From: Patescibacteria group bacterium
Lineage (GTDB): Bacteria; Patescibacteriota; JACPGU01
Assembly (NCBI GenBank): GCA_041675145.1
Contig: JBAYUK010000001.1
Location: 106,751 to 170,750, forward strand
DNA length: 64,000 bases
Direction of reading: 5' to 3'
Shown: positions 34,740 through 52,498 of the stretch, one piece after another
How the letters are laid out: each line of letters begins with the position of its first letter
Numbering within the stretch: position 1 is the first letter of the stretch
The notes under the pieces: model-generated
What the model was told of the DNA's origin: nothing
What the model saw: the letters and a program-made list of their open reading frames with translations, nothing else
Database searches by the model: none
Position numbers and translations under genes: made by a program

Positions 34740-34889
34740 ACAGAAAGTATATCAGTAAGTATGGTAGAACGAAACAGTAACGCAACCCAGCTATTCACAG
34801 GTAATTATGAAATAATTTGCCTTATTATGGCTATTTAATATCAATATGATATAATACGGGAACAAAAAAATCAAAGTGAGGTTATAACC

Positions 34890-35684: not shown

Positions 35685-35708
35685 AGCGCCACCCTTCGGG
35701 GTGGCGCT
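35685..35708. terminator. Bidirectional stem-loop AGCGCCACCC-UUCG-GGGTGGCGCT between convergent transcription units
   Basis: 10-bp GC stem with a UUCG tetraloop and U-rich flanks on both strands. It argues against the overlapping ORF 35604..35822. Confidence 0.6.
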
Positions 35709-35742
35709 GTTGATTTCTATTTAGAAACTAACTACAAATACC

Positions 35743-36009: not shown

Positions 36010-36293
36010 TTTTGCTTATCTATAGATGCCATCATTTCCTCAACACTATTAAAGGCAGGAGACCAGTTTATACCTTTTTTGTAGTCCTCATCTGCCTGTA
36101 GCAACTCTTCTGCAATCTCGTCTCGTAATTCATGTGTATCCTCGAGTACCACTCGACGATTTTTAACTGTTTCTCGAAGAGACATATTTACTAATGCAGT
36201 CATAGTAATACCAAATGTATCTGCCAACTTTTCCGCTTCTTTCTTGAACCCCTGGTCAATTTTAATGTGAAGCGTAGTAGTACTATTCTTCAT
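36006..36293 (-). CDS. Type II antitoxin, RelB/DinJ family (ribbon-helix-helix)
   Basis: 'TLHIKIDQGFKKEAEKLADTFGITMTALVNMSLRE' is a DinJ-like RHH N-terminus. Confidence 0.8.
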   Translation of the reverse strand: MKNSTTTLHIKIDQGFKKEAEKLADTFGITMTALVNMSLRETVKNRRVVLEDTHELRDEIAEELLQADEDYKKGINWSPAFNSVEEMMASIDKQK

Positions 36294-36308
36294 GCTGATA
36301 ACCTAATT

Positions 36309-36349
36309 GTATATACCTAAAATATACCTTTTTGGTATATACTTGTCAA
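36309..36349 (-). promoter_or_regulatory. TA promoter/operator: TTGACA-17-TATATT overlapped by a perfect 9-bp inverted repeat GTATATACC...GGTATATAC
   Basis: Seen directly; the typical autoregulatory architecture of a TA operon. Confidence 0.65.
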
Positions 36350-36363
36350 TAATTCTGTAGTCA

Positions 36364-36750
36364 CTATTTCTTATCTAGCTGTAGCGCTGCCGAGTTAATA
36401 CAATACCGCTCCCCTGTCTCGGTCGGTCCGTCTTTAAAAACATGTCCTAAATGTGAACCACAGTTCTTGCAGATTACTTCAGTTCGCTTCATGCCATGCG
36501 AAACATCATCAACCAGAACTACATGCTCTAAATCTGCTGGCCGGTCAAAAGATGGCCAGCCAGTACCAGACTCGAATTTGGCATCAGAAGAGAAAAGTTC
36601 TTGGGAACAAGCCGCACACTTATACATACCTGCTTCTTTTGTTGCACAATACTCTCCGGAAAACGGAGCCTCAGTCCCTTTGTGACGCAGTACTCCGTAC
36701 TGCTCAGGAGTAAGCTTTGCCTTCCACTCTTCATCGGATATATTCATCAT
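36364..36750 (-). CDS. msrB: Peptide-methionine (R)-S-oxide reductase
   Basis: SelR motifs 'GWPSF' and '[17 protein letters not shown]', with two CxxC pairs. Confidence 0.9.
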
Positions 36751-36751
36751 A

Positions 36752-37138
36752 TTAGACCTCCTCGGTATGCTCGCGACGAATCACCGACCAGTGGTAACCC
36801 AAAAGTGGCAAGCCAACAATAAGGAGTGCAACATCTTGAGCAAGGTCACGATTCATGTTGTTCTTTTTATCCAGTGCCTTTCGCTCCTGGTCTTCTACTT
36901 TCTTCTGGGCATATTGTTCATCCGTACACGGTTTGCGGTCGTAGGTCATTGAGCTTGGCACATCCATATAACAGTCGGTACGAGTTAGTGGGTAGTTGTA
37001 TGAGTACCCGTCATTCGGGAACACATAGATACTTAACACGAGCTGGATCAGTGAGATAAGAGCGATAAGGACCATAATCAAGCCAGCTGCTGAAAAGCTA
37101 TACAGATAAATGTTGCGCAGTGAAAAAGAGAGTTTCAT
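36752..37138 (-). CDS. Small membrane protein (2 TM), start trimmed to Met-30 because the upstream part overlaps the gmk terminator
   Basis: Hydrophobic N-half and charged C-half. Confidence 0.45.
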
Positions 37139-37181
37139 ACAAAATTTTAATACTAATACCTCTATACTACCTACTTTATAC

Positions 37182-37216
37182 AAAAAAGAAACCCCAGCCT
37201 TTTGTAAGGTGGGGTT
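37182..37216 (-). terminator. Intrinsic terminator after gmk (AACCCCA...TGGGGTT with U-tract)
   Basis: 7-bp stem; T-rich on the minus strand downstream. Confidence 0.65.
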
Positions 37217-37235
37217 CCAGGTCAATGGTGCGAAT

Positions 37236-37913
37236 TTATAGGCGCTGAAGCCTCTGCATGCGCTGATGAATTATGTGCTCCAATTCAGCACATGCTTTTT
37301 CAAAGTTATCATTTACCAGCGAGCAGTCGAACAGCGGTTCAAATGCAAGCTCCTTCTTGGCTAGCTCGAGCCTCTCCTCAATGTTGTCTCGTCCCCCGCT
37401 CTCACGCATGCGCCGTTCTAGTTCGCGCATACTGGGAGGCTTGATCAGGACCGTAAGCACCAGTGGACCAAGCTCGTTCTTGATGTTTGTTGCTCCAACC
37501 GGCTCAACATCGAGCAAAAGATGCCTGCCATGATTAACCAACTGCATCACCTTATCTTTAGGAGTGCCATACCAGACACCTTCATGCACCTGGTTGGTTT
37601 CGAGAAAGAAACCCTCGTCTTTGAGTCGCAAAAAGGTCTTCTTGTCTGTGTGGGTGTAGTGCACTCCGTCGATTTCATCATAGACTTTACCAGTCTTTTT
37701 GCACACAACTCCAGTCCTCAGAGCCCTTGTGGTGCATGACACCACAAACCTGAATTTGTATTTTTCAACTAAACGGTTCTTCAAGGCTCCTTTTCCAACA
37801 GCAGATGGACCCGAGAGAACGAGCAGTTGCGGATTTGGGCCGTTCGAGCCAACAAATCCCTTGTAATCCATCTTCTTGGGCTTGCTTCTTTCTTCTTTCT
37901 TTACGTAAGCCAT
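37236..37913 (-). CDS. gmk: Guanylate kinase
   Basis: P-loop 'LSGPSAVGKG', 'VSCTTR' and NMP-binding motifs. Confidence 0.9.
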   Translation of the reverse strand: MAYVKKEERSKPKKMDYKGFVGSNGPNPQLLVLSGPSAVGKGALKNRLVEKYKFRFVVSCTTRALRTGVVCKKTGKVYDEIDGVHYTHTDKKTFLRLKDEGFFLETNQVHEGVWYGTPKDKVMQLVNHGRHLLLDVEPVGATNIKNELGPLVLTVLIKPPSMRELERRMRESGGRDNIEERLELAKKELAFEPLFDCSLVNDNFEKACAELEHIIHQRMQRLQRL

Positions 37914-38017
37914 TGCAGACTCCTTTCCTTGTGTGTATTTTCCGACTGTAAAAGAGGATCGAGGAGTAATGTCACTCCCTGATATTTCCTGTATTATAGC
38001 AGTTTTGTACTATACAT

Positions 38018-38046
38018 AAAAGACCCGCCTTGTAGCGGGTCTTTTA
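38018..38046. terminator. Bidirectional terminator AGACCCGC-CTTGTA-GCGGGTCT with A/T tracts
   Basis: 8-bp GC stem with flanking A4 and T4. Confidence 0.8.
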
Positions 38047-38787
38047 TTCTTTTATATTAAATATACTGAATATGTACTTTACTCTAGTTTTAATCGGATC
38101 CACTAATCTTGAAATTACCTTATCAAAATATATCGCACAATCACTAAAACAAATAACTAAAATCAATGTTAAAACCAAACCATATTCCCATGTCGTTATA
38201 AAAGATAACTTTCTAAGCGAAAAAACTAATGTAACTACTCCACCCATAAATAGCAACACCAGCAACTCCTTGAAGTACGATAAATACCCATGATCTTTCT
38301 GCTTAATACCACTATCGTTACTTTGCACCTTAGCAATAATCCCACCATAAATATTATCTAATTTTTTAAAGTCATGAGATTTAAAACCATCAAGCCACGC
38401 GTTATTGACTACCTCATTCGTATCGTAATACTCATTTGAAATCCTGGCTACCTCATTAGCTCTTATGTCTATATTTTCCCTCAAGAAGAATACCGAGAAA
38501 ACTATCTGTAAAAATAAAAGTATATAACCGGACTCAAAAAAATATATTCTTGAGGGTAAAACATGTGGATATATAAAACCCACTAAGCCCATTATAGCAA
38601 TAGAGATAGTAAGCAGTAACCTTATAAACTCCACTCCTTCTTTTCTTGCCGCATCGCGCTGACTCTGTAGTAGAACTACATTCTGATGATAGTCATTTAG
38701 ATATGACTCGTACCTCTTTTTCATATCTTCAAGATAATCCCTACTAACCGATTCTTCTACTATTGAGTCGTCTAACATATAAAACAA
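38044..38787 (-). CDS. Hypothetical polytopic membrane protein (247 aa)
   Basis: Charged N-terminal domain followed by 4-5 TM segments. Confidence 0.5.
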   Translation of the reverse strand: MFYMLDDSIVEESVSRDYLEDMKKRYESYLNDYHQNVVLLQSQRDAARKEGVEFIRLLLTISIAIMGLVGFIYPHVLPSRIYFFESGYILLFLQIVFSVFFLRENIDIRANEVARISNEYYDTNEVVNNAWLDGFKSHDFKKLDNIYGGIIAKVQSNDSGIKQKDHGYLSYFKELLVLLFMGGVVTLVFSLRKLSFITTWEYGLVLTLILVICFSDCAIYFDKVISRLVDPIKTRVKYIFSIFNIKE

Positions 38788-38801
38788 AGTTACTAACTAC
38801 T

Positions 38802-38825
38802 AATGAGGGGCTTACGCCCCTCATT
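38802..38825 (-). terminator. Stem-loop AATGAGGGGC-TTAC-GCCCCTCATT downstream of fusA
   Basis: 10-bp perfect stem 12 nt after the fusA stop. The U-tract is weak. Confidence 0.5.
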
Positions 38826-38836
38826 CTGTCTCAATT

Positions 38837-40930
38837 CTAGTCTTCTTTCTTTGCACGAAGTCCAATAATAGTTTCGCGAATATTTCGTGGTACTTCAGCG
38901 TAGTGATGGAACTCCATCGTAGAGCTGGCACGACCCTGTGACATAGAACGAAGAGTGGTAGTGTAACCAAACATTTCAGCAAGTGGTACATACGCTTGTA
39001 CGAATTTCACTGAACCACGGTCACCCGTTTCCAAGATCTGACCACGCTTTGCATTCACATCTCCCATCACATCTCCTAAGAAGTCTTCAGGAGTAAGTAC
39101 TTCTACTTTCATAACTGGCTCAAGGATAGCAGGGTCTGCTTTCTTCACACCATCCTGGAAGGCCATTGAGCCGGCAATCTTAAATGCCATTTCAGATGAG
39201 TCAACATCGTGGTATGACCCGTCATATACCGCTACCTTCACATCAATAACTGGATAGCCGGCAATTACTCCACGAGTCATCGCTTCCTTTACACCCTTTT
39301 CAATTGCAGGGATGTATTCACGAGGAATAGCACCACCAACAATCTTGTTTTCAAAAACAAAGTTCTTAATTTCAGACTCAGGCTCGAGTGGAGAAATTTC
39401 CAACCAACAGTGTCCATACTGACCACGACCACCAGACTGGCGAACAAATTTTCCTTCCACCTTAACGCTCTTTTTAATCGCTTCTTTGTAGGCAACCTGT
39501 GGTTTACCAACATTTGCCTCCACTTTAAATTCACGCTTCATACGGTCTACGAGAATTTCCAAGTGAAGCTCTCCCATTCCTGAGATGATAGTCTCACCTG
39601 TTTCTTGATCTGAGTTAATCCTAAATGTTGGATCTTCTTCAGCAAGTTTAGAAAGTGCAATACCCATCTTTTCCTGGTCGGCCTTGGTCTTTGGCTCAAT
39701 AGCAACTGAGATCACTGGCTCTGGGAAGGTAATTTTTTCTAAGATAATTTGGTTGTTCTCATCACACAAGGTATCTCCCGTAAAGGTAGACTTGAGTCCT
39801 ACTGCTGCTGCAATCTCACCTGCGCCTACTTCAGATACTTCCTCGCGCTGTGCCGCATGCATACGAACAATACGTCCAATACGCTCACGCTCACCCTTGG
39901 TCGAGTTGTACACATAGCTACCAGCAGTCAGTTTTCCTGAATACACACGGAAGAAACAGAGTTTTCCAACAAATGGGTCGGTTGCAATCTTGAACGCAAG
40001 CGCTGCAAATGGACCTGACTCGTCAGCTGTTCTTGTAATATCTTCTTCAGTTTTAGGATCAGTACCGTGTACTGGTGGCTTATCGAGTGGAGATGGGAGA
40101 TATTCCATAATTGCATCAAGCAAGCACTCTACAATTACTCCACGGCCGTCTCCTCCCAGTACTGGAGAGAAGTCTCCTGATAGAGTTGCTTTACGGATAG
40201 CAGCCTTAATTTCTGCTACCGAAAGCTCCTCACCAGCTAGGTACTTGTTCATCATCGCCTCATCGTATTCAGAGACTTTTTCGATCAGCTCTGAACGATA
40301 CTTAGCAACTTTTTCTGCCATGTCTGCAGGAATTTCTCCTTCTACAAGCGCATGGTCAGTAAAGTCCTTGTAGGTATATGACTTCATAGCAACCAAGTCC
40401 ACTAAACCGTTGATTTCTTTTTCAAAACCAATTGGTAGTGCAATAGGAAACGCATTTTTGCGTAGACGCGCACGAATAGACTCGAGTGACTTGTAGAAGT
40501 CTCCACCCGTTTGGTTGATCTTGTTAATAAAACACAAACGAGGGACATTGTACTTGTCTGCTTGACGCCATACTGTTTCTGACTGAGGCTCTACACCCAT
40601 TTTTCCGTCAAAGATTACGGCAGCACCGTCAAGAACACGGAGTGAACGTTCTACCTCTACGGTAAAGTCTACGTGACCTGGGGTGTCGATAATGTTGTAC
40701 CGATGACCCTTCCAGAAACAGGTAGTAGCAGCTGAGGTAATAGTAATACCACGCTCCTGCTCCTGTTCCATCCAGTCCATGGTCGCCTGTCCTTCATGAA
40801 CGGCACCAATTTTGTGTTTCTTACCAGTTCGGTACAAGATCCCTTCGGTCACAGTTGTCTTACCCGCATCGATGTGGGCAATAGTTCCAAAGTTACGCAC
40901 TTTATCTAAAGGATAGTGTTCGTCTGCCAT
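38837..40930 (-). CDS. fusA: Elongation factor G
   Basis: 'AHIDAGKTT', 'DTPGHVDF' and 'NKMD'-like motifs. 697 aa. Confidence 0.97.
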
Positions 40931-40971: not shown

Positions 40972-41002
40972 AGCAAAATAAAATACGCTCAAAGCGTTTG
41001 AG
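40972..41002 (-). terminator. Intrinsic terminator ending the surface-protein operon (CTCAAA-GCG-TTTGAG followed by U-rich on minus strand)
   Basis: Hairpin about 35 nt downstream of the 41041 stop. Confidence 0.55.
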
Positions 41003-41040
41003 AGTAATTATACTGGATTTATCTGGTTTTGCAAGGAGTA

Positions 41041-41706
41041 TTACAGATCCGACTCATCAAGAATATTATACTTTTGAGAAAGCTTTTTTCTTCTAGTTCC
41101 CTTAACTACTCGATACACTATGTCTGCAAGAATAATAAACACCAGAAACCCTATAATCCCTTTAACCCACGGCTCTTTATACCACTGATTCACAAGACCA
41201 CTACAACAAACTACTATCGGCGCCTGGGTAATAACATTCGCCTCAACCAAAGAAGCGAGACTAGTTCTTATTTGACTTCCTCCCTGAACAGTATTACTAG
41301 CTCTTGCCTGCTCAGTAAAGAAAACGCCAAAGTCATACTCACCTGAGGCAATCTTCTTGGGTGAGACACGGACGGTAACTGAAGCATCAGCGCCAGATGG
41401 AACGATAAAAGTAGAAGGTTCAACTGTTATAAACTGAGTAAGTTCATTAGTAACTTTCTTACCCCCTAGCTCAAATACTGCCTGTGTATCGTCTTTAATG
41501 AAGGCACGGATATCTACATCAATAGTACGAGGCTCATTTGCTCCATTAAAGTAGGTTACAACATGCTCTACCGTATCCCCTTCTTGAATATCCAGGTGCT
41601 TGGAAAGTGGAGATACCTGAAACTGTGCTGCACTTACGGGAAGAGCAACAAGCATCAGTATCGCTACAAAACTAACCCGAGCTAACGAAATTATTTTATT
41701 GAACAT
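41041..41706 (-). CDS. Small surface protein: signal peptide, ~150-aa beta-rich domain, C-terminal TM anchor and short basic cytoplasmic tail
   Basis: 'MFNKIISLARVSFVAILMLVALPVSAAQ' signal. C-terminal 'IIGFLVFIILADIVYRVV' TM followed by 'KGTRRKKL'. Confidence 0.6.
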   Translation of the reverse strand: MFNKIISLARVSFVAILMLVALPVSAAQFQVSPLSKHLDIQEGDTVEHVVTYFNGANEPRTIDVDIRAFIKDDTQAVFELGGKKVTNELTQFITVEPSTFIVPSGADASVTVRVSPKKIASGEYDFGVFFTEQARASNTVQGGSQIRTSLASLVEANVITQAPIVVCCSGLVNQWYKEPWVKGIIGFLVFIILADIVYRVVKGTRRKKLSQKYNILDESDL

Positions 41707-44700
41707 TTGGTACTATGGTAATAATAATGTTGTTTTTGTATTTACCGGCAGGCTGGCCTTTGCCTAATCCAACACGAACAAGTAAGTAGTCAGTAAATGA
41801 AGTTGGTTTTCCAGAGACACTGGGAATATGGGTTGCAATCGGTGCATCTTGTGTTGTAAAGGCTGCCCATTTTCTCACTCCTCCTAGAAAGAACCGATTT
41901 GGAATGCCACCTGAAACACTGGTACTGGTAGTTGAGTATCCCATAAACCCAGTACCCTTTGGTTCTACCCATGGAACAGGCGCGCCATTTGAGATAGGAG
42001 ACCCGGTGTTGCCATCAAAAGGAGGGATCACTTCCCCGTTATCATTCCGCAAGTCCCCGTCTTGCTTTACTGTGACAGTATACCCTTGCGCATTATCTGC
42101 AAATCCTTGGATCGCAAATGCTCCAGACTTATTGTCTTCCCATGAAACATTATCAAAAGAGATTCCGTCGGCTCGGGATGCGGCAGAGAGCACAATATCA
42201 GATAAGCTGGATACCGTATCCACAGTCAAAACTGGTTCGATAGTAAGAGACAGTGTTTCAGGAGGACCTATCAAAAACTGGGTACTATCAGAGAAAAGAT
42301 AGGGGCTTGTTACTCCATCCCCTATAGAAACAGTAACCGGCACAGTTCCTTGATTTACTAAAAGCTCTTCAGGTACTTGAGCAGTAAGCTCAGTCTCGGA
42401 AACAAACGTTGTGGGAATGTCTTTAACATTGAATTGTACCTTAGCTGTTGAGTTAAACTTAGAACCTTTGATACGCAATGTAAATTCTCCTCTATTTTTT
42501 GCACGTGAGTTAGGAGTAAGCTCTGTAATAACTGGGTTTGGACTAACGGGTGGAATTGTATTACCTCCCCCAGTTGATCCTGGGTTAACCGGTACAGCAC
42601 TAGTAACGGTTAGTGTCTTTATCGCAGAGAGTCCCCCGCCTGGCGTTGGATTAAAAACAGTAATGTTAACTGTACCAGCCGTTGAAATATCTGTATTGAG
42701 TACAGTAGCCGTTATCTGCCCTGAGTTGACAAAAGTAGTAGCACGATCAGAACCGTTAACACGAATCACTGAAGTCGGGAAGAAGTCACTCCCGTTGGCT
42801 GATAGTACAAAAGATGGATCTCCTTCGGTTTTAGTATCAGGCACTATCGTTGACAATGTCGGCACCGGCAGCGGATCAACTGTAAAAAAGGTGGCACCGG
42901 AGTCAGTTTGGGCAGCTTGCGAAACACTAGGATTCTTAACTCTCACACTCAACGATCCAGCACTCGTTATATCGCCAGATGTAATTGCTGCAGTTAGTTG
43001 AGTTGGACTCACATAGGTAGTGGTTTTTGCTACCCCATCCACATACACCACCGAACCTGAATCAAAATGGCGCCCATTGACGGTCAAGGTAAGTCCAGCT
43101 GATCCTGCATAGACATTAGTTGGTGAGATAGACGAAACCACTGTTTGCAACATGACAGAAAACTGTGTGTTATTTGAGTTGCTCGTAGCAAAATCCATAA
43201 CTCCATCATTATCAAAGTCAGCGGCGGTAATAGCTGAGACAGACAGCGTTGAAGGGTTCGTTGGATCAGGTCGATATATTGTTTGGTTATCTCCCTGGTA
43301 GTTTGATTCTACGACCGTATTGATTCCATCAGTTGAAAATATTCTTGAGCTTCCCCCAACTAAAACGTTACCGAGGTAGATTCTGTTAGCTGAGGTAGGA
43401 GCCAGGAACGGAAAAGTCGCGCTAAGACTAAAAGTACCGGATCCGCCATTGGCAAGATAATAGAGATTATTTGATCCCACTACTCCGATATGGCGAATTG
43501 AGCCTGCATTGAGCGTGGTAAGCGTATTGACTGAAGGTAAACTAACATTCGCATGGGTAGCGCTTAAAACGCCGGCTGTATTTGTAAATACTGAAACAGT
43601 ATTGTCTCCAATATTCGCTGTTGCAATACGATCCACTACCCCACTCGGGTTAATGTGTTTAAAGGCAATAACCGAACGAGGATTAGTACCTGCTCCAGTT
43701 GAGTATGTTGTAGTGGCGCCGTAGCTACCCGTGTTTATCCCGGTCTGGATAGTAACACCTACCTGGTTTGCAGTTTGGTGAACGGTAATAATATCCATAT
43801 CCGTATCACCGTCTATATCAACTATCTCGACATCACGAGTAACTGCCGGCACGCTAACCGTTGTTGGCCCTGTAAATACTCCGGTTCCATCGTTAAAAAA
43901 TAAATCTACTATACTGCTCGAAAAAACAAGAGCTACATCTTGATCCCCATCAATATCTATATCAGCCAGCTTGATGGCAATCGGATTGAGATGCCCACCA
44001 GTAGAGTAGGCAGTACCAGTAGCCGGAAATGTTCCGTCACCGTTATTAAGCGATACACCAAAACCGTGAGTAGTAGCAGACATATTGGTTACAATATCCG
44101 GAAAAGCGTCCCCGTTGAGGTTACCTGAGACTATAAGCTGTGAGAAAAATGTTGCTGCTGGAGCATAATTTTGTGAAGTATAGGTTTTTTCAGATGGGAC
44201 TACTACAGAGAAGTTGATCAAAGAAGACAGGCCACCACCAGGTGATGGGTTGAATATAGTTACCGGTACTGTTGCGGCCGAGGTAAAGTCTGTTGATGGA
44301 ATAGTAGCAGATAATGACGTACTACTGCCAAAAGTAGTAGTCCGATCTGATCCATTCCAGCGCAACACTGAGCTACTAATAAAGTCTAGCCCAGTAACGC
44401 TTAGAGTCAGCGCTGCTGCGCCAACATTCTCAAATCCTGGACTCAGCGTAGAAAGAGTCGGAGTGGTCACCCCAAACTGAGACAGGTTTGGCCGGGAAGA
44501 TCCACCGACTGCTGTGTATGATCCACCAATGTAGACTACACTCCCCTGAAGAGAGCTAGAGAATACGGTTCCTGTTATATTTGGATCCCAAGTAGTTACT
44601 AGCGCAGTACTAGTACTGAGCGCTGCTAAATTAGTGCGTGCTCCTCCGCCAATAGTTGCAAAAGTACCGCCCACATAGAGCGTTGTGGTACCATCTGGCG

Positions 44701-46642
44701 TAATGGTATTAATGGTAGCACTTGGTGAAGCTGCATCCCAAACATTAGCAGTACCAGTAGCAATAGATAGACTGGCTATACCTTTTCGTGCTCCTCCGCC
44801 AATAGTAGTGAATGCTCCTCCGGCATAGATCACACCACCATTCTCAAGTAGAGCATTTACCTGTCCGTTCGCGTTCGGATCCCAGGCGGTAGCCAGTCCT
44901 GTTGCTGGAGAAATTGCGGCAATGTTGTTACGAGTCGAACCTGCTGCAGTTCCAAATGAACCACCGATGTATACATCCGTACCATCTGCGACCAGGGCGT
45001 ATACAAATCCTACTACTCCAGGATCCCACGCCGTAACCGATTCAGTTCCTGTATCTATCGCTCCAAGATGAGCACGGGAAGACGCTCCCAATAAGGTAAA
45101 CTGTCCTCCAATATATAAATTAGTACCATTAAGAGCAAAGGCTTTGACTACTGCGTTTGGTGCAATATTTAATGTTGTTGCACTACCAGTAGTAGTATCG
45201 AGCGCTACAAGGTTAGTACGCGACTGACCTCCAATTGTTCCTGTAAATGTTCCACCAGTATAGAGTGTTGAACCAGACAATAGTAAAGCATTGACTGTCA
45301 TGGAGGTAGATCCTGCAGGGTTCCATGAGGAAATCGTTCCGTCACTCCCAATTTTGGCCAACCCTTTTCTATTTTTTCCGCCAATAGAGGTGAAGTTTCC
45401 TCCGAAGTAGACATTCGTAGCGTCAACTGCTACTACAATTGCCCCACCACCAATTCCAGTGTTAGGGTCAAAGGAAGTAGCCAGGCCAGTTGCAGTGTCG
45501 ATAGCGGCGGCAAGTTGCCTCGACTGGCCACCTATGGTCGTGAAACCTCCCGCCACATATACCATACTACCGCTGAGTTCAAGTCCAAACACTACGCCGT
45601 TCGCGTTCGGATCCCAGGCGGTAGCGTTCAGTGTATTAGTTGTTGTATCGAGTGCTGCAATGTTATTACGAGCTGACCCTCCAATAGAAGTGAATAATCC
45701 TCCCGCATACAGCGTTGTACCGGAAAGTCGAATCTCGTATACCGTACCATTTGAACCAGGGTTCCAGGCAGTTGCCAATCCTGTTGTAGTGTCGAGCGCC
45801 GCAATCCGGTTGCGAGACTGACCACCAATGGTCGTGAAGTTACCTGAAGCGTAGAGCGTAGTACCAGAAAGAGCAAGTGAATCGAGGTTTGAGTTTGCAT
45901 TCGGGTCAAAAGCGGTAGCAAGTCCTGTTGTCGTATCAATTGCTGCTATTCTGTTACGAGAGGTAACGCCAACTGTTGTAAAAAAACCACCTACATACAA
46001 AGTATTGGCACCATCAAAAACAATGGAAAGTACACGGTTATCTAGATTGGGGTTCCAAGAAGTTGCAACACCAGTAGTGAGGTTAAGCGCAGCTAAATTG
46101 TTACGAGTCTGACCCCCTATAGTACTGAAATTTCCTCCTACATACAGTACGCCGTTTGCCACTACTAGTTCTTCAATGTATGAGTTAGCATTACCATCAA
46201 AAGTAGGGTCAAGCGTACCGTCAGACAAGATGTGGGCAATATGATTACGGGTAGTAGTCCCAACCAGAGTAAAATCACCACCTATGTAGTATCCACCAGA
46301 TCCATCCAGACCTACCGCACGCACCACACCGTTGGGAACTGCGTTACCAGATGGGACACTTGCTGTTGTCTTGTTTACCACTGCTCCGTATCCTGTATAT
46401 GGTCCAACATAGGTGAAGTTTCCACCAATATATACTGATCCATCTCCTGCTGTCTGTATAGCATTCACATCACCATCTGTAATCGGAAAGCTCGAAACGG
46501 CAGCTGAAGAAGGAGCCGCATACGTCTCCCCGACCCGAGTCCCAAAGGTAAAGAAACATGAACTGAGAATAAGCGCACTAATACTCACACCAGAAAAGAG
46601 GCGTTGAAGTATGGTCGTCTTTTGTTTTAGGTAATCCTGCAT
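41696..46642 (-). CDS. Giant secreted/cell-surface protein (1648 aa): ~14-16 tandem ~47-aa beta-propeller-type repeats, IPT/TIG-like Ig domains, FG-GAP/VCBS-like Asp-rich repeats, unassigned ~230-aa C-terminal domain
   Basis: Signal peptide, then the repeat consensus 'SRNxIAALDTTTGxATAWNPNANGxVxAL..GxTLYxGGxFTxIGG'. 'DIDGDTDMD' and 'FDNDGVMDF' are FG-GAP-like. Several 'LTVNG..F..SVV..NG...TT..S...' IPT-like segments. Confidence 0.8.
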   Translation of the reverse strand: MQDYLKQKTTILQRLFSGVSISALILSSCFFTFGTRVGETYAAPSSAAVSSFPITDGDVNAIQTAGDGSVYIGGNFTYVGPYTGYGAVVNKTTASVPSGNAVPNGVVRAVGLDGSGGYYIGGDFTLVGTTTRNHIAHILSDGTLDPTFDGNANSYIEELVVANGVLYVGGNFSTIGGQTRNNLAALNLTTGVATSWNPNLDNRVLSIVFDGANTLYVGGFFTTVGVTSRNRIAAIDTTTGLATAFDPNANSNLDSLALSGTTLYASGNFTTIGGQSRNRIAALDTTTGLATAWNPGSNGTVYEIRLSGTTLYAGGLFTSIGGSARNNIAALDTTTNTLNATAWDPNANGVVFGLELSGSMVYVAGGFTTIGGQSRQLAAAIDTATGLATSFDPNTGIGGGAIVVAVDATNVYFGGNFTSIGGKNRKGLAKIGSDGTISSWNPAGSTSMTVNALLLSGSTLYTGGTFTGTIGGQSRTNLVALDTTTGSATTLNIAPNAVVKAFALNGTNLYIGGQFTLLGASSRAHLGAIDTGTESVTAWDPGVVGFVYALVADGTDVYIGGSFGTAAGSTRNNIAAISPATGLATAWDPNANGQVNALLENGGVIYAGGAFTTIGGGARKGIASLSIATGTANVWDAASPSATINTITPDGTTTLYVGGTFATIGGGARTNLAALSTSTALVTTWDPNITGTVFSSSLQGSVVYIGGSYTAVGGSSRPNLSQFGVTTPTLSTLSPGFENVGAAALTLSVTGLDFISSSVLRWNGSDRTTTFGSSTSLSATIPSTDFTSAATVPVTIFNPSPGGGLSSLINFSVVVPSEKTYTSQNYAPAATFFSQLIVSGNLNGDAFPDIVTNMSATTHGFGVSLNNGDGTFPATGTAYSTGGHLNPIAIKLADIDIDGDQDVALVFSSSIVDLFFNDGTGVFTGPTTVSVPAVTRDVEIVDIDGDTDMDIITVHQTANQVGVTIQTGINTGSYGATTTYSTGAGTNPRSVIAFKHINPSGVVDRIATANIGDNTVSVFTNTAGVLSATHANVSLPSVNTLTTLNAGSIRHIGVVGSNNLYYLANGGSGTFSLSATFPFLAPTSANRIYLGNVLVGGSSRIFSTDGINTVVESNYQGDNQTIYRPDPTNPSTLSVSAITAADFDNDGVMDFATSNSNNTQFSVMLQTVVSSISPTNVYAGSAGLTLTVNGRHFDSGSVVYVDGVAKTTTYVSPTQLTAAITSGDITSAGSLSVRVKNPSVSQAAQTDSGATFFTVDPLPVPTLSTIVPDTKTEGDPSFVLSANGSDFFPTSVIRVNGSDRATTFVNSGQITATVLNTDISTAGTVNITVFNPTPGGGLSAIKTLTVTSAVPVNPGSTGGGNTIPPVSPNPVITELTPNSRAKNRGEFTLRIKGSKFNSTAKVQFNVKDIPTTFVSETELTAQVPEELLVNQGTVPVTVSIGDGVTSPYLFSDSTQFLIGPPETLSLTIEPVLTVDTVSSLSDIVLSAASRADGISFDNVSWEDNKSGAFAIQGFADNAQGYTVTVKQDGDLRNDNGEVIPPFDGNTGSPISNGAPVPWVEPKGTGFMGYSTTSTSVSGGIPNRFFLGGVRKWAAFTTQDAPIATHIPSVSGKPTSFTDYLLVRVGLGKGQPAGKYKNNIIITIVPNVQ

Positions 46643-46712
46643 GTAAACATAGTTATACAGGATTTAGTATACGGTATTTTCTAGAAGAAAAGTGTGGATA
46701 AATAAAAAGAAT

Positions 46713-46733
46713 GGAGACGCATTTAGCGTCTCC
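46713..46733 (-). terminator. Stem-loop GGAGACGC-ATTTA-GCGTCTCC after the protease gene (partial terminator or processing site)
   Basis: 8-bp perfect stem with T-rich sequence downstream on the minus strand. Confidence 0.5.
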
Positions 46734-46757
46734 ACATTCAAAGTATCGTTGAGAAAG

Positions 46758-47528
46758 TTATTTATGGGGCATTTCAGGCAACGGATGCCTGAGATTGGCC
46801 AAGTAAACAAGAAAACTTGTCGACTTTGTTTTGGTCTCTGCTCCATTTTTTTGTTGGTAGTTAAACCCCTGCTCCGTTGTTCCTGATAACAAGAGAAGAT
46901 TGTCGTCGCTACTGCGAAACGGGGTTCCTGAGTCACCAGGCTTAGAAGGCGGAACAATGTCACACATGAAGAATTGCCGTTCCTCATTGGTACCAACTAC
47001 ACCTACAACAAACCGAGCCTGGCCGAAGCACTGTCCAGAACGCTTACCGTCCAGGGATTTGACGACAATGGGATCAATTCCTTGCACGTCACCCACGGCA
47101 TTCATGGTGCCCTCATCACCTAAAGGTTGTATTGGAGCACTTCCGGAAGTCAGTGGCGCATCTGTTCCGGGCTTACCCGGTGCAAGAATGACCACGTCCC
47201 CCCCCAAGTACATAGTTGCAACCAACGGGTAAATCCCAGACTCATCATGGATTTTGTAGTGACCGACAAAGTCCTTTTGAAACCAGTGCCCAACCGTAAA
47301 AAACGCAGACCGTCCTTCCATATTGGATAACCGTACGCCTGGAGCAGACATCTTCGCTTCCAGGTTTTCGATAACCATTGCTTTGGCTTCCACCTGGATC
47401 GGTGGCAGCTCTGGTTTCTTTGCAAGAGCATGTTGCTTTGCGACGGGGGTTGTAGTAGGTTTACAGCCCATAACGCCTGAGGCGAGGAGAAGAAAGGCAA
47501 GAGTGTGCGCTTTCATGTGAGTCACCAT
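46758..47528 (-). CDS. Secreted trypsin-like (S1 family) serine protease, probable lipoprotein or signal peptide
   Basis: 'GDSGTPF' catalytic Ser motif. N-terminal 'LLLASGVMGC'. Confidence 0.7.
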   Translation of the reverse strand: MVTHMKAHTLAFLLLASGVMGCKPTTTPVAKQHALAKKPELPPIQVEAKAMVIENLEAKMSAPGVRLSNMEGRSAFFTVGHWFQKDFVGHYKIHDESGIYPLVATMYLGGDVVILAPGKPGTDAPLTSGSAPIQPLGDEGTMNAVGDVQGIDPIVVKSLDGKRSGQCFGQARFVVGVVGTNEERQFFMCDIVPPSKPGDSGTPFRSSDDNLLLLSGTTEQGFNYQQKNGAETKTKSTSFLVYLANLRHPLPEMPHK

Positions 47529-47547
47529 CCTTTTTTGAACTAAATAT

Positions 47548-47575
47548 ATTATATATATTTATTCACTTTTGTCAA
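47548..47575 (-). promoter_or_regulatory. Consensus sigma70 promoter TTGACA-16 nt-TATAAT (minus strand) for the protease-adhesin operon
   Basis: Both hexamers are perfect consensus. Confidence 0.7.
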
Positions 47576-47606
47576 TACATTGGTAAATAGATGCAATTAT
47601 TACACT

Positions 47607-47636
47607 AAAAAACCCGGATTATCTCCGGGCTTTTTA
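47607..47636. terminator. Bidirectional terminator CCCGGA-TTATC-TCCGGG with A5/T5 flanks, after rpsG
   Basis: Seen directly, 20 nt after the rpsG stop. Confidence 0.8.
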
Positions 47637-47657
47637 GTGAGTACTTTTCTTATAGCT

Positions 47658-48134
47658 TTAGTATCGTGCAAAGTGTGCGTATGCGCGGTTACTTTCTGCC
47701 ATACGGTGTGTATCTTCTTTCTTCTTAACCGCTGCACCTTGTGCTTCAGAGGCTAACATAAGCTCTTCAGCAAGCTCCTCTGCAGTTGAACGGCCTTTCT
47801 TAGCCCGCACAGCAGCAATCACCCACTTCATAGCAAACATAAGCTTCTGGTCTTTTTTAACTTCCATAGGAACCTGGTAGTTTGCTCCACCAACACGGCG
47901 AGATTTTACCTTCACCGAAGGAGAAACATTCTTCATTGCAGCACTAAACACATCCAGTCCCTTTTTTCCTGTCTTTTTTTCAATGATATCGAATGCATCG
48001 TACACGATACGAGATGCAACTGACTTTTTTCCATCCCACATTAAGTGGTTCACAAACTTTGCCAAAATCAAAGAATTATGGATTGGATCCGGAGCAAGTT
48101 TATGTTTAGCGATCAGGCTTTTTCCTCGTGACAT
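47658..48134 (-). CDS. rpsG: 30S ribosomal protein S7
   Basis: 'MSRGKSLIAKHKLAPDPIHNS' is a uS7 N-terminus. Confidence 0.95.
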   Translation of the reverse strand: MSRGKSLIAKHKLAPDPIHNSLILAKFVNHLMWDGKKSVASRIVYDAFDIIEKKTGKKGLDVFSAAMKNVSPSVKVKSRRVGGANYQVPMEVKKDQKLMFAMKWVIAAVRAKKGRSTAEELAEELMLASEAQGAAVKKKEDTHRMAESNRAYAHFARY

Positions 48135-48151: not shown

Positions 48152-48583
48152 TTATTTTTTAGCAGCTGCGCCCGCTTTTTTCGCACCGTAGCGAGAACGA
48201 CCTTGTTTGCGCTTATCTACACCACCAGCGTCGAGCATTCCTCGAACAATGTGGTAACGAACTCCTGGAAGGTCCTTTACACGACCACCACGGATCACTA
48301 CCACTGAGTGTTCCTGGAGGTTATGCCCAATACCCGGGATGTAGGCGGTTACTTCCATACCATTCGTTAAACGAACACGAGCGATTTTTCGAAGCGCTGA
48401 GTTCGGTTTCTTTGGTGTCATGGTAGTAACCTTGGTACATACTCCCCTCTTAAACGGAGCTCCCTTTGGGCTATCGGTAACCTTGTTTTTAATCGAATTG
48501 AAATTCTTCAGCAGGGCTGGAGATTTACTTTTCTGAGTAATTTTCTTGCGTCCCTTACGGACAAGCTGGTTAATAGTTGGCAC
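48152..48583 (-). CDS. rpsL: 30S ribosomal protein S12
   Basis: '[13 protein letters not shown]' and '[10 protein letters not shown]'. Confidence 0.97.
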
Positions 48584-48652: not shown

Positions 48653-51600
48653 CTAGAGGACTTTACGAAAACCGGTTCCAGCAGGAATAAGTTTTCCAAG
48701 GATAGTGTTTTCTTTGAGCCCCCTCAAGTAGTCAACCTTGCCCTGAGTTGCAGCATCGATCAACACTGCGGTTGTCTCTTGGAATGAAGCTGCTGACAAG
48801 AATGATTCAGTATTAAGCGCTGCTTTAGTAATACCAAGGAGCAATTCCTCTGCCTCAATCGGTTTCTTTGAGTTCTTGTTGTGCGCCTCAATAACTGAAC
48901 GAGAAACAATCTCACCTTCAAGGTACTCACTGTCTCCTTGGGCAACAATTCTCATCTTACTAAACATCTGGCGGATAATAAGCTCAAGATGCTTGTCGTT
49001 AATAAACTGCGCTTGAGACTCGTAAATACTCTGAATCTCACGAGCAATATACTGCTTGACCGCAAATGTTCCTTTAATATCCATCAATTCATGCAGATCG
49101 ATATGTCCTTCAGTGATCTGGTCACCCTTTTCAATACGAGCACCATCTTCGAGCATGAGGTCCATACCTGGATCAATTGCGTAGCTCTTCTCGTCTTTGT
49201 GAGTATAGGTCACAGTTACGGTACCAGCCTTTTCGTTAACTTCAACACTACCCTTACCGTGAGAACGCATGGTCTTTTGCTTACCGAGGTCGATCAAGGC
49301 CTGACCGTCTTCTACCTTGTCCTTGTCTTTTACAAGAACTTTAGCGCCCTTTTTCACGACGAAAATCTCACGCTTGTTGTCTTCCGAGGTAATAACAACT
49401 GTCTTTTTATCATGGCTGTTTTCTATTACAGCAACCTTACCGGTAAGTTCAGAGATGAGAGCCAGACCCTTTGGAGAACGAGCTTCGAAGAGCTCTTCTA
49501 CACGAGGAAGTCCTTGGATGATGTCGCGCTTTGCAATACCACCCGAGTGGAAGGTACGCATGGTAAGCTGGGTTCCCGGCTCTCCGATAGACTGTGCAGC
49601 TACAATTCCGGCTGCCTCACCGATAGCCACCAAGTGACCACGAGCAAGGTCTCGTCCGTAACACATCTGACAAATTCCCCACGCCGCTTCACATTCAAGT
49701 ACGGTACGAACATGGACAACATCTACTTCTGGATTTTCAATAAGAGTAACAATAATTTCACGAGTGAGTTCAGTGCCGGCAGCAACCAGTACTTTTCCTT
49801 TCTTGGTTATAATGTCTTGGGCAAGCATTCGGCCATCGATATGGCGAGTAAACTCATTTTCAATATCATGTGCCGTGCTCTTCGCAAACGAAATACTCTT
49901 TGCTGTTTTACAGTCATCTTCTGCTACGATCATATCCTGACAGACATCTACCAAACGACGAGTAAGGTACCCTGAGTCAGAGGTACGAAGCGCAGTGTCG
50001 GCAAGACCCTTTCTCGCTCCGTGAGACGAGATAAAGTACTCAAGAACTGAGAGTCCTTCTTTGAAGTTAGATTTAACTGGAAGATCAAGAGTCTGACCTG
50101 TTGGACCAGCCATCAAACCACGCATGGCAACCAACTGGGTAATAAGGTCTTTGTCTCCACGCGCTTTAGAGGTAAACATCATGTGGAGTGGGTTGTTCGC
50201 GGTAAATGTCTGCATCATCTCTGACTCGATCTTAGCTTTAGTAGCAGACCATAACTGAATAGTCTTCATCGATTTCTCGGCTTCAGTAATAAGTCCGAGT
50301 TTGTACTGTGCATCAATTTCGTTATAGAGCTCCTCGGCATCATGAATACGACCCTGCTTGGTTGCTGCAATCTTGAGGTCATCGATAGAAAGAGTTACTC
50401 CAGAAAGAGTTGCCGCCTTCATACCAATATTTTTAATGTCGTCTACAAACACTGCAGTGCGCTCAATACCGAGCTCCTTAAATGAACGAGCAATAATAGC
50501 CTCGAGCTTACCCTTTACCATCGTATCGTTTACCATTCCAAATTCAGGTGGCAAGATTTGGTTAAACATTAAGCGACCAATAGTAGTCTCTATCACGTCT
50601 TCCCCGATCTTAACCTTAATTGGCTCGCGCAACTTAATTTGATTCAAGTCATAGGCTGAATGCGCTTCATTTTCATTTCCAAATGCACGAATCTTATTAC
50701 CTTCAAAATCAATATCAATCATGGTGAGGTAGTAACATCCCAATACCATGTCTTTAGATGGGGCAACAGACGGCGCACCATCTGAAGGCTTGAGCAAGTT
50801 ACGACTTGCTACCATCGTCTCACGAGCCTCAGCTTGCGCTGGTGCTGAAAGTGGTACGTGGATTGCCATCTGGTCACCATCGAAGTCAGCGTTAAACGGC
50901 GCACACACAAGAGGGTGGATACGAATCGCTTTTCCTTCAATAAGTTTTACTTTAAATGCCTGGATACCAAGACGGTGAAGAGTTGGCGCACGGTTTAGTA
51001 AGACATAGTGTTTACTAGTTACTTCTTCCAAAATATCCCATACTTCCGGAATACCCGCGTCGATCAACTTACCGGCAGACTTAGCACTATGAGTAAACCC
51101 ACGAGCGATAAGACCTGAGATAATAAATGGCTTAAAGAGTTCTAGTGCCATGGTCTTTGGAATACCACATTCATCCAGCTTCAGGTCTGGTCCTACTACA
51201 ATTACTGAACGACCAGAGTAGTCTACACGCTTACCAAGCAAGTTCTGACGGAATCGTCCCTGCTTACCTTTGAGTGCCTCAGAAAGAGACTTGAGTTTCT
51301 TTTTATTCGCTGCAGCAGCACCCTTACCGCGCTGTGAGTCAGTACCGATCAACGCGTCAACTGCTTCCTGTAACATACGCTTTTCATTGCGCTGAATGAC
51401 CTCAGGAGCACGAAGTTCCTGAAGGCGCTTCAAGCGATTGTTACGGTTAATAACACGACGGTAGAGGTCGTTAATATCGCTCGTTGCAAAACGACCACCA
51501 TCTAATTGCACCATTGGGCGTAAATCGGGTGGAATAACTGCAATATGTGTCCAAATCATCCACGCAGGATCAAGACTAGCTTTTACTAAGCCATGCACAA

Positions 51601-52498
51601 AACGAAGACGCTTCATGACTTTCTTTTTCTTTTGTCCTGCTGACTTTTCCTTCTCTTCTTCGAGTTCTTTTTTGAGTGTAGTAATATCGATCTCACGAAT
51701 AAGATCATAAATTGCTTCTGCTCCAATATTGGCCTTAAAGAAGTCACCGTACTTGCGACGCAAATCAGCGTATTTTCCTTCTGAAAGAATCGCGTATTTC
51801 GCAAGCTTCGAGATATCATCTCGAGCTTCCTCGTATACCGTTTCTACTTCATTCTTCTTTGCCTCTACACTCTTTTCATAGGCTTTGAGCTCGTCTTGAA
51901 GTTTTTTAACTAATGTTTTCTTCTCGGCTGTTTCCATCTTGTCATCAGCCATGGCCTTATCCAGCGCCTTCTTGTGGGTATCCCCTTCTTTTGCGAGCGC
52001 TTTTTTGAATTCTTCAACTTCAGCTTTCAGTTTCGCGAGAATCTGTTGCTTCTCCTTCTCCTTTACATCAGTGACCACAAAGCTGGCAAAGTACACAACC
52101 TTTTCAAGGTCACGAACAGAAATACCAAGATACATACCAATTCGGCTTGGTACGCCACGCAAATACCACACATGCGCAACTGGTGCAGCAAGCTTGATAT
52201 GACCCATGCGTTCACGACGAACAATAGAGCGAGTTACTTGCACTCCACATTTATCACAGATAATTCCCTTGTAACGAACTTTCTTGTATTTACCACAGTA
52301 ACACTCGAAGTCTCGAGTAGGTCCAAAGATTCTTTCACAAAACAAACCATCGCGCTCAGGCTTCTGAGTACGATAGTTAATAGTTTCAGGTTTTGTCACT
52401 TCACCATGAGACCACTGTAATATGTGTTCTGGGGAAGCAAGCGATACTTTGATGGCGTCGAAGTGGGTCACTCTCTCGCCGAATTGTTCTTTCATCAT
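48653..52498 (-). CDS. rpoC: DNA-directed RNA polymerase subunit beta'
   Basis: Zn finger 'CYCGKYKKVRYKGIICDKCGV' and the catalytic 'NADFDGDQM'. Confidence 0.97.
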   Translation of the reverse strand: MMKEQFGERVTHFDAIKVSLASPEHILQWSHGEVTKPETINYRTQKPERDGLFCERIFGPTRDFECYCGKYKKVRYKGIICDKCGVQVTRSIVRRERMGHIKLAAPVAHVWYLRGVPSRIGMYLGISVRDLEKVVYFASFVVTDVKEKEKQQILAKLKAEVEEFKKALAKEGDTHKKALDKAMADDKMETAEKKTLVKKLQDELKAYEKSVEAKKNEVETVYEEARDDISKLAKYAILSEGKYADLRRKYGDFFKANIGAEAIYDLIREIDITTLKKELEEEKEKSAGQKKKKVMKRLRFVHGLVKASLDPAWMIWTHIAVIPPDLRPMVQLDGGRFATSDINDLYRRVINRNNRLKRLQELRAPEVIQRNEKRMLQEAVDALIGTDSQRGKGAAAANKKKLKSLSEALKGKQGRFRQNLLGKRVDYSGRSVIVVGPDLKLDECGIPKTMALELFKPFIISGLIARGFTHSAKSAGKLIDAGIPEVWDILEEVTSKHYVLLNRAPTLHRLGIQAFKVKLIEGKAIRIHPLVCAPFNADFDGDQMAIHVPLSAPAQAEARETMVASRNLLKPSDGAPSVAPSKDMVLGCYYLTMIDIDFEGNKIRAFGNENEAHSAYDLNQIKLREPIKVKIGEDVIETTIGRLMFNQILPPEFGMVNDTMVKGKLEAIIARSFKELGIERTAVFVDDIKNIGMKAATLSGVTLSIDDLKIAATKQGRIHDAEELYNEIDAQYKLGLITEAEKSMKTIQLWSATKAKIESEMMQTFTANNPLHMMFTSKARGDKDLITQLVAMRGLMAGPTGQTLDLPVKSNFKEGLSVLEYFISSHGARKGLADTALRTSDSGYLTRRLVDVCQDMIVAEDDCKTAKSISFAKSTAHDIENEFTRHIDGRMLAQDIITKKGKVLVAAGTELTREIIVTLIENPEVDVVHVRTVLECEAAWGICQMCYGRDLARGHLVAIGEAAGIVAAQSIGEPGTQLTMRTFHSGGIAKRDIIQGLPRVEELFEARSPKGLALISELTGKVAVIENSHDKKTVVITSEDNKREIFVVKKGAKVLVKDKDKVEDGQALIDLGKQKTMRSHGKGSVEVNEKAGTVTVTYTHKDEKSYAIDPGMDLMLEDGARIEKGDQITEGHIDLHELMDIKGTFAVKQYIAREIQSIYESQAQFINDKHLELIIRQMFSKMRIVAQGDSEYLEGEIVSRSVIEAHNKNSKKPIEAEELLLGITKAALNTESFLSAASFQETTAVLIDAATQGKVDYLRGLKENTILGKLIPAGTGFRKVL

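Follow-up and report, generated by a model that had tools for sequence, protein, structure and literature searches.

The stretch of DNA analyzed here, called the window, is 64,000 nucleotides (64 kb) long and comes from a metagenome-assembled genome recorded at NCBI as 'Patescibacteria group bacterium'. Between its rpsG and fusA genes lies a probable two-gene surface-display module composed of a 1648-amino-acid (aa) surface protein, here called the giant, and a 221-aa membrane-anchored protein, here called the partner. The giant ends in a conserved C-terminal module (C-dom) which, judged from profile comparisons, is related, though divergently, to the acceptor domain found at the C-terminus of Pam pilins. 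The same kind of comparison makes the partner distantly homologous to the DUF916 (PGBD) domain of WxL-interacting proteins (WxLIP), here carried on a membrane anchor. A first-pass annotation of this DNA had joined the two genes with the one upstream of them, a putative protease (ORF-A, for open reading frame A), in a single system; the functional unit is the giant and the partner, and not the trio. Bacteria of the Candidate Phyla Radiation (CPR), or Patescibacteria, rely on attachment to host cells, and their host-recognition molecules are mostly unknown. The giant/partner locus is plausibly a host-attachment device, a stripped-down relative of Pam pili and WxL complexes. The features of the two genes are as follows.

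41696..46642, minus strand: giant, 1648 aa, WC045_00920, named 'FG-GAP-like repeat-containing protein' (ORF call, domain matches)
46514..46642, minus strand: N-terminal signal peptide region of the giant, aa 1-43, ...TYA/AP (read by eye from the sequence, no dedicated predictor)
44468..46495, minus strand: 14 DUF5122/delta-60 beta-propeller blades, aa ~50-725, period 48-50 aa (PF17164, E 2e-20; 14 regularly spaced motifs)
44198..44464, minus strand: CoaZ/IPT-like repeat 1, aa 727-815 (NF058597; boundaries by jackhmmer)
43148..44155, minus strand: FG-GAP/VCBS integrin-like propeller region, aa ~830-1165 (PF13517, PF01839)
42284..43141, minus strand: CoaZ/IPT-like repeats 2-4, aa 1168-1257, 1259-1346, and 1367-1453 (NF058597, jackhmmer)
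41699..42280, minus strand: C-dom, aa ~1455-1648, ~190 aa (conserved C-terminal module)
41041..41706, minus strand: partner, 221 aa, WC045_00915 (ORF call)
Partner aa 1-27, minus strand: predicted signal peptide (sequence)
41227..41625, minus strand: PapD-like/WxLIP-PGBD-like beta-sandwich of the partner, aa ~28-160 (AlphaFold2 [AF2] model, homology)
41104..41160, minus strand: C-terminal transmembrane (TM) helix of the partner, aa 183-201 (mean Kyte-Doolittle 2.3; basic cytoplasmic tail)

A C-dom and a partner homologue stand next to each other in at least nine other metagenomic loci, and the passengers carried on C-dom are entirely different between loci. These loci include the following.

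L083: C-dom protein of 1122 aa, DUF5122 and TIG passenger, adjacent partner of 209 aa
L084/85: C-dom protein of 1326 aa, Laminin_G and Big_12 passenger, adjacent partner
L089: C-dom protein of 1990 aa, long repeat-rich unannotated passenger, adjacent partner
L090: C-dom protein of 257 aa, no passenger, adjacent partner
L103: C-dom protein of 206 aa, no passenger, adjacent partner
L101: pilin-like C-dom proteins of 350 and 385 aa, in two tandem pairs
L100: C-dom fragment, passenger not visible, adjacent partner
L086 (P0130): 533 aa at 8001-9602, with partner, TM segment, and C-dom in a single ORF

The earlier proposal that the giant and a small anchored partner belong together is borne out by this recurrence and by an overlap of the two genes. 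The ATG of the partner overlaps the 3' end of the giant by 11 nucleotides, an overlap that is kept in L083 and that suggests translational coupling of the two proteins.

L083 is syntenic with the window and has the order PAP2, giant orthologue, partner, and fusA. Between the two, the N-terminus of EF-G is 97% identical, while identity is 40-42% for the giant and 31% for the partner. The FG-GAP propeller and one CoaZ repeat of the window giant (aa ~820-1259) are absent from the L083 orthologue, where they correspond to a gap in the BLASTP alignment. This difference is a whole-module gain or loss in an otherwise colinear adhesin. Divergence of both proteins next to a 97% identical EF-G, together with the propeller missing from L083, is what one would expect if the surface protein evolves fast.

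Several of the smaller loci have features of their own. P0130 of L086 contains a two-domain WxLIP-like part, TM segments, and a PamT-like C-dom, and adjoins a 686-aa CarboxypepD_reg-like protein. It is either a natural fusion of both partners or a merge made in gene calling. The tandem pairs of L101 (1-8364) are found near a 1388-aa Peptidase_S74 (tail-fibre-type) protein, a PIN/HTH pair, and four glycosyltransferases. The small C-dom proteins of L090, L101, L103, and L086 carry an N-terminal repeated motif, (S/T)xNYx(I/L)xxxxxxxGG (examples, SSTNYQLKSYGFGSGG and GGAYQIYADSVNTGG), which the giant lacks. This motif may be the donor/linker region of polymerizing subunits.

C-dom is marked by the motifs GYT[VIL]xV, PxxW, GYS, W[AD], and QxAGxYxN, in that order. 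It is matched by phmmer to the L083 protein at E 1e-63 and to the L084 protein at E 1e-14, and a profile made without the giant or L083 recovers the C-dom of the giant at E 9e-22. Among the best 120 homologues of the giant, C-dom is shared only by P0073, the L083 protein. Four C-dom sequences, once aligned, proved too dissimilar to scan with. A word-indexed protein search with the C-terminal 209 aa of the giant found nothing, and sequence and profile searches gave no Pfam, NCBIfam, or PDB match for the C-dom of the giant itself. The connection to Pam is made through seven C-dom relatives, which match NCBIfam NF058579 (CPR_pilus_PamT) and/or NF058581 (CPR_Pam_pilin_C) with E values between 4e-9 and 6e-3, none of them reaching the curated cut-offs of 55 and 240 bits. 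A profile of the giant and L083 sequences was aligned by hhalign to a profile of five Pam-matching relatives at 98.0% and E 2e-13 over 154 columns. Since C-dom is related to the C-terminal domain of Pam pilins, the closest described system is the Pam pilus.

The description of the partner as a signal peptide, a beta-rich domain, and a C-terminal TM helix holds, with the beta-rich part resolved into one sandwich. Modeling with AF2 from a 15-sequence alignment reached a pLDDT of 87, compared with 49 from the single sequence. The model contains one beta-sandwich at aa 29-159 and a helix at 179-212, with confidence lower in a loop at aa 133-148, and the ectodomain as modeled is a PapD/FimC-chaperone fold. 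On its own, the partner has no Pfam or NCBIfam family match. The word-indexed protein search returned only the partner itself and the first metagenome scan was empty; an exhaustive HMMER search identified 14 remote homologues. PF06030 (WxLIP_PGBD, formerly DUF916) is touched, below threshold, by 8 of the 15 members of the partner family. When a profile is built from the six single-domain members, it matches the PGBD domain of EfmWxLIP1 (E. faecium WxLIP1, PDB 9i1y/9i25) at E 2.3e-9 over residues 33-153, and the family aligns by hhalign with seven annotated plasmid WxLIPs at 96.2% and E 2e-9. Two-domain relatives of the partner are P0125, P0132, P0134, and L090 (273 aa).

The homology of the partner to the WxLIP PGBD domain, and the position of C-dom at the end of a large multi-domain protein, as in a 'large WxL' (PMC9772566), are what a very divergent WxL cluster would present. 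In such a cluster, C-dom would bind peptidoglycan non-covalently and the partner would be a minimal WxLIP that stabilizes it on the wall. Relaxed hhalign settings align GYTV with GWxL, and AGxYxxxIxI with YxxxLxWxL, with a best P of 7e-4. However, PF13731 (WxL) matches none of six C-dom sequences, and the giant contains no W-x-L motif, as the first-pass annotation had already noted. Genuine WxL domains were gathered from plasmids of Enterococcus, Lactococcus, Listeria, Lactiplantibacillus, and Levilactobacillus; against 8 to 17 of these, the hhalign probability for C-dom is 27% or less and falls to 1% with better profiles. C-dom profiles (A4, A7) run against the PDB matched no WxL chain, 9i25_A included. 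The definition of a WxL cluster also requires two WxL proteins and a two-domain WxLIP, and the link to the Pam pilin C-terminal domain is far stronger. C-dom as a WxL domain was rejected as unproven, and WxL-type anchoring of the giant is considered improbable. The likeness to WxL/DUF916-type loci proposed earlier therefore stands for the partner, which is homologous to WxLIP, and falls for the C-dom of the giant, which is a Pam-pilin relative instead.

Upstream of C-dom, the giant is composed of propellers and repeats, which agrees with its earlier description as a giant beta-propeller surface protein. The 14 DUF5122 blades probably form two seven-bladed propellers. NF058597 (CoaZ_rpt_PGGG) matches four stretches of the giant at E 9e-90, corresponding to the four CoaZ/IPT repeats, and PF20144 (TIG_SUH) is matched at aa 1370-1431. 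The FG-GAP region contains two DxDxDG-type calcium-binding motifs (aa 894 and 1142). Approximately 4,800 database proteins match the giant, mainly in the DUF5122 part, and the best 120 of them mostly cover ~40% of the query. Proteins that share the propeller often end in T9SS sorting domains (PF18962). A passenger of propellers and IPT repeats is common to thousands of DUF5122/delta-60 adhesins with other anchors, and CoaZ is itself named as a 'choice-of-anchor' module. Unlike those adhesins, the anchor here is a Pam-type C-dom with a cognate membrane protein, and not T9SS, LPXTG, or PEP-CTERM.

The Pam pilus was described in Ca. Mycosynbacter amalyticus, and the models NF058579 and NF058581 derive from it (Troman et al., bioRxiv 10.64898/2026.03.03.709456). 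In this pilus, pilins with a truncated immunoglobulin (Ig)-like domain at the C-terminus polymerize by donor-strand exchange without an usher, and the PamC and PamD proteins are FimC/PapD-like chaperones held in the membrane by a C-terminal helix (bioRxiv 10.64898/2026.03.03.709456). The window locus belongs to the same superphylum, and its C-dom probably falls in the same superfamily as the acceptor domain of Pam pilins and PamT. The partner resembles PamC and PamD (WP_260763277.1, WP_260763284.1; compared by description) in its predicted Sec export, PapD/FimC fold, and C-terminal TM helix. In both systems there is no usher, and donor-strand complementation is the expected mechanism. The two differ in that the acceptor domain here is attached to a 1450-aa adhesin passenger, in place of the nine-strand N-terminal domain and linker of Pam; no donor-linker strand is evident in the giant; and the partner is a single-domain protein, where PamC and PamD each have two domains. 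The locus is also a two-gene one within the str operon, with no PamA/B/E/T/R set and no ATP-synthase neighborhood in the window. The neighbors of the pair in the window are rpsL, rpsG, fusA, gmk, and others, with no multi-pilin operon.

The second comparison is with the WxL/WxLIP (Csc) surface clusters of Bacilli (PMC1534035, PMC9772566, PMC10599100; PDB 9i1y, 9i25). These clusters are defined by at least two WxL-domain proteins, one small and one large, with dual Trp-x-Leu motifs, and by a two-domain WxLIP (PGBD and HBD) (PMC10599100). AF2 predicts that a strand of the WxLIP is inserted into the WxL domain (PMC10599100), and PDB 9i25 holds WxL and WxLIP chains together. As in these clusters, a large multi-domain protein with a dedicated C-terminal module is encoded beside a protein with a signal peptide, an Ig-like domain, and a C-terminal TM helix, the last of these placed on the partner as on WxLIP. 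The likeness of the partner to the WxLIP PGBD (DUF916, PF06030) extends over both sequence and structure and includes the E...G(A/S)Q(I/V)(K/R) loop-strand. The locus differs in having no WxL motifs or PF13731 domain, no small WxL protein, and no LPxTG protein, and the partner lacks the second (HBD, DUF3324) domain before its TM helix. The organism is also different: a Patescibacterium here, as against the Firmicutes that hold 91% of WxL sequences (PMC9772566). Within the library of papers searched, nothing connected WxL/DUF916 with CPR.

Tip adhesins of chaperone-usher pili (FimH-FimC, PapG-PapD, CfaE-CfaA, CsuE-CsuC) likewise join a receptor-binding passenger to a C-terminal acceptor pilin domain, and the predicted fold of the partner matches the N-terminal domain of their chaperones. 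Patescibacteria are not known to have an outer membrane. The locus differs from these systems in belonging to such a monoderm cell, in its membrane-anchored, single-domain partner, and in showing no detectable sequence similarity to chaperone-usher pilins; no usher-like gene was seen at the locus. By analogy, the locus would work like the chaperone-subunit pairs of Pam and chaperone-usher pili and like the WxL/WxLIP pair, yet it lacks defining features of each.

From these likenesses, the following arrangement is proposed. The giant would be exported by Sec and would carry passengers of adhesin type, namely the two DUF5122 propellers, the integrin-like FG-GAP propeller, and the four IPT-like spacers, on C-dom, which would be an incomplete, strand-accepting domain. 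The partner would be a type-I membrane protein co-translated from the overlapping start codon. One of its beta-strands, likely a G1-like strand after the conserved E...GxQ[IV][RK] loop (aa ~133-160), would fill the open groove of C-dom. Such donor-strand complementation would serve to stabilize the adhesin and, by way of the TM helix of the partner, to hold it at the cytoplasmic membrane as a 'zero-length pilus'; the propellers would point away from the cell, where they could bind the surface of a host, prey, or substrate. Direct tethering of this kind is judged somewhat probable. It is favored because only the pair is present in the window and at several other loci, because the two proteins appear translationally coupled, and because the partner has a single domain. 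Results of the analysis itself are the homologies, the modeled fold of the partner, the overlap of the two genes, and the adjacency of the pair with its co-variation across loci.

The giant could instead be the tip adhesin of a true Pam-type pilus, a distal subunit like FimH, PapG, or PamT, with the partner acting as its transient dedicated membrane-anchored chaperone. Shaft pilins (PamA/B-like) and an anchor (PamR-like) encoded elsewhere would then displace the chaperone strand, and the filament would carry the adhesin outward. PamT is described as a tip pilin consisting only of the C-terminal domain, and PamC and PamD as TM-anchored chaperones (bioRxiv 10.64898/2026.03.03.709456), in keeping with which the C-dom relatives match both the PamT and the Pam pilin C models. 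The tandem pairs of L101 adjoin the Peptidase_S74 tail-fibre-like protein, and according to the Pam preprint, pam neighborhoods also include a protein that is tail fibre-like. On the other hand, no second C-dom and no second partner was found in the window, and L083, L084, and L089 likewise hold the pair only. The single domain of the partner also differs from the two of PamC/D, and the reported Pam pilin homologues are mostly from Saccharimonadia and Microgenomatia (bioRxiv 10.64898/2026.03.03.709456). A tip-adhesin role of this kind is accordingly rated as possible, although rather unlikely.

Direct tethering by the partner has several points to contend with. The C-dom of the giant has no match to the NCBIfam Pam models even at E 10, and the matches of its relatives all stay under the cut-offs. 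That this C-dom is a truncated Ig domain, and that a strand of the partner is inserted into it, we infer. An adhesive role and attachment to a host are suggested by the domain types alone. The partner has one extracellular domain, compared with two in PamC/D and in WxLIPs. Shaft pilins may exist elsewhere in the genome, including on the rest of the 428-kb contig, in which case the partner would be a transient chaperone and not the final anchor; permanent rather than transient binding is presumed in the tethering reading. Finally, neither a sigma-70-like promoter nor a Shine-Dalgarno sequence was found between the terminator of ORF-A and the ATG of the giant (46643-46710). With no promoter recognized after that strong terminator, expression of the giant is left unexplained.

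How Pam filaments contact the host is described as unresolved in the preprint (bioRxiv 10.64898/2026.03.03.709456). Pam-type acceptors on swappable, fast-evolving passengers, each with a cognate anchored partner, are concrete candidates for host recognition, and the combination of C-dom and partner provides a simple signature for metagenome searches. Two genes that are 'hypothetical' or vaguely named in the record, WC045_00915 and WC045_00920, gain a testable function. The sequence link between the Gram-positive DUF916/WxLIP family and chaperone-like proteins of CPR is absent from the WxL papers and from the Pam preprint, which mentions neither adhesin fusions nor WxL/DUF916 (bioRxiv 10.64898/2026.03.03.709456). 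From this link, it seems that surface display in monoderm bacteria may follow a shared donor-strand logic. A wider and tentative idea is that the partner family is a missing link, with WxL/WxLIP complexes, Pam pili, and chaperone-usher pili forming one ancient donor-strand-complementation family. The window would then hold the minimal form of that family, a single-domain 'chaperone' permanently bound to a giant diversifying adhesin. If so, monoderm CPR cells would have a general, usher-less way to hang interchangeable host-recognition proteins on the membrane, and the giant would be a host or prey receptor-binding factor.

The third gene, ORF-A, lies upstream of the giant. It and its transcription signals are as follows.

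46758..47528, minus strand: ORF-A, putative lipoprotein of 252-256 aa, NCBI hypothetical protein WC045_00925 (ORF call)
47548..47575, minus strand: sigma-70 promoter of ORF-A, TTGACA-16-TATAAT (12/12 consensus)
46711..46735, minus strand: intrinsic terminator after ORF-A (10-bp stem with 6 GC pairs, T-run; −18.1 kcal/mol, z −6.35)

The start of ORF-A is likely the second ATG, at 47516, which has AAGGA upstream. Given its promoter, AAGGA ribosome-binding site, lipobox (Cys22), and terminator, ORF-A looks like a real gene. The perfect promoter pattern occurs twice in the window, compared with 0.08 occurrences expected by chance. Both this promoter and the internal terminator had been reported before (the latter at 46713-46733), and both are upheld, the one as non-random and the other as strong.

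The product contains chymotrypsin-like motifs at aa 78-81 (TVGH), 109-115 (GGDVVIL), and 198-203 (GDSGTP). The candidate catalytic residues H81 (FFTVGHW), D111 (GGDVVIL), and S200 (PGDSGTPF) follow the His/Asp/Ser order of S1 proteases at spacings of 30 and 89 aa, a likeness at the level of motifs. No S1-clan match was found in Pfam or NCBIfam at E 1, in the PDB at E 10, or in PHROGs, and no homologues were found in plasmids, phages, or viral contigs. Alignment by hhalign to streptogrisin B (SGPB) and alpha-lytic protease gave a non-significant P of 0.05, using sequences of the two proteases that did not come from a database. The earlier reading as a secreted S1 serine protease thus keeps its motifs, their order, and a lipoprotein signal, and lacks any family, PDB, or profile match. 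ORF-A is possibly a small lipoprotein protease. Its GC content is 0.52 (window positions 47000-47499) compared with ~0.40-0.46 in the flanks, and it may be recently acquired or fast-evolving. It is an orphan across search tools covering 5.8 billion proteins.

If the three genes formed one system, the role of ORF-A would be that of a secreted S1 protease acting on the giant, in its processing or maturation. In favor of this are the adjacency of the genes on one strand, the lipoprotein-type signal of ORF-A, and its H/D/S motifs, ordered and spaced as in chymotrypsin. However, with a consensus promoter and a strong terminator of its own, ORF-A is a separate transcription unit. It also has no detectable homologue, and the P of 0.05 against the two proteases adds little. 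The check for co-occurrence, now run, found ORF-A in none of the other loci carrying the pair; in the syntenic L083, PAP2 occupies the upstream position. As an independently transcribed gene that is absent from the other pair loci, ORF-A is not part of the module. The trio is largely refuted by this lack of co-occurrence, and a processing role for ORF-A is very improbable.

The order of genes on the minus strand is rpoC (48653-52498), rpsL (48152-48583), rpsG (47658-48134), ORF-A, giant, partner, and fusA (38837-40930). The ORF calls agree with the layout first reported, in which ~6.6 kb with three genes in this order split rpsG from fusA; the spacing is ~6.7 kb. Identical DNA is present in ENA ERZ27247358 (377-kb contig) and in Logan SRR6484325; the genome's own 428-kb contig carries MFA7308616-18. 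The best GTDB matches of rpsG are from Paceibacterota/Parcubacteria at 60% identity or less, with no close reference genome. Among 60 GTDB loci with fusA downstream of rpsG, the gap is under 300 bp in 46 and 1-4.7 kb in eight; in nine further loci, fusA is not within 10 kb of rpsG. The gap is 10-69 bp in the four CPR-labeled loci (L003, L005, L008, and L011). A split between rpsG and fusA is a minority state, neither rare nor unique.

The pair precedes fusA in L083 as well, with a different gene upstream, so the locus is not a recent self-contained insertion, and the pair must have stood ahead of fusA for some time. A repeat check and the ORFs of the window gave no flanking repeats, integrase, or insertion sequence around the locus. 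Recent insertion of a mobile element was rejected on both grounds. An Rfam scan found no RNA families in the window.

The remaining transcription signals are as follows.

47600..47640, minus strand: intrinsic terminator after rpsG (16-bp stem, −25.3 kcal/mol, z −8.56, 0/200 shuffles as good)
41007..41034, minus strand: promoter-like site before fusA, TTGCAA-16-TATAAT (10/12)
40985..40997, minus strand: weak hairpin and T-run before fusA (5-bp hairpin, −4.9 kcal/mol, z −0.86, 42/200 shuffles as good)

The strong terminator directly after rpsG was missed by the first-pass annotation. It closes the rpsL-rpsG transcript and sets the locus apart from the ribosomal genes that precede it. The terminator placed by that annotation at the end of the locus (40972-41002) does not survive: its hairpin is not significant and lies downstream of the promoter-like site. 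L083 has an equivalent promoter-like site (TTGAAT-17-TATAAT) and, at the same place, a hairpin of −7.8 kcal/mol (85/500 shuffles as good). The leader of fusA has a common layout in the window (40985-41034) and L083 (4820-4885), consisting of the promoter-like site, a short weak hairpin from ~+3, and a T-run. Its conservation points, tentatively, to a leader or attenuator of fusA and not to a terminator of the adhesin operon; neither hairpin is significant by energy. A TATAAC hexamer is located 9 nucleotides upstream of the giant ATG. A leaderless transcript is possible for the giant.

The fusA and tuf genes are likewise separated (31783-40930 of the window), by ~6 kb with ~10 unrelated genes. 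These include genes for a 247-aa membrane protein, gmk, a DUF5671 protein, msrB, a YafQ-type toxin pair, a SpoU methylase, a GNAT acetyltransferase, and a HAD hydrolase. With both rpsG-fusA and fusA-tuf split, the str operon of this genome is broken at two junctions.

The second perfect promoter of the window (TTGACA-17-TATAAT, 60268-60296, minus strand) is directly upstream of a LysM-LysM-Peptidase_M23 gene (59131-60246). The encoded protein may be a cell-wall hydrolase, with peptidoglycan of a host or of the cell itself as its possible substrate. The rpsL gene is called as 89 aa in the metagenome (L001, 3235-3504), while the window ORF, starting from GTG, is 143 aa in length. This longer ORF aligns with other bacterial rpsL sequences over residues 1-136 or more, and the public 89-aa call is therefore probably truncated.

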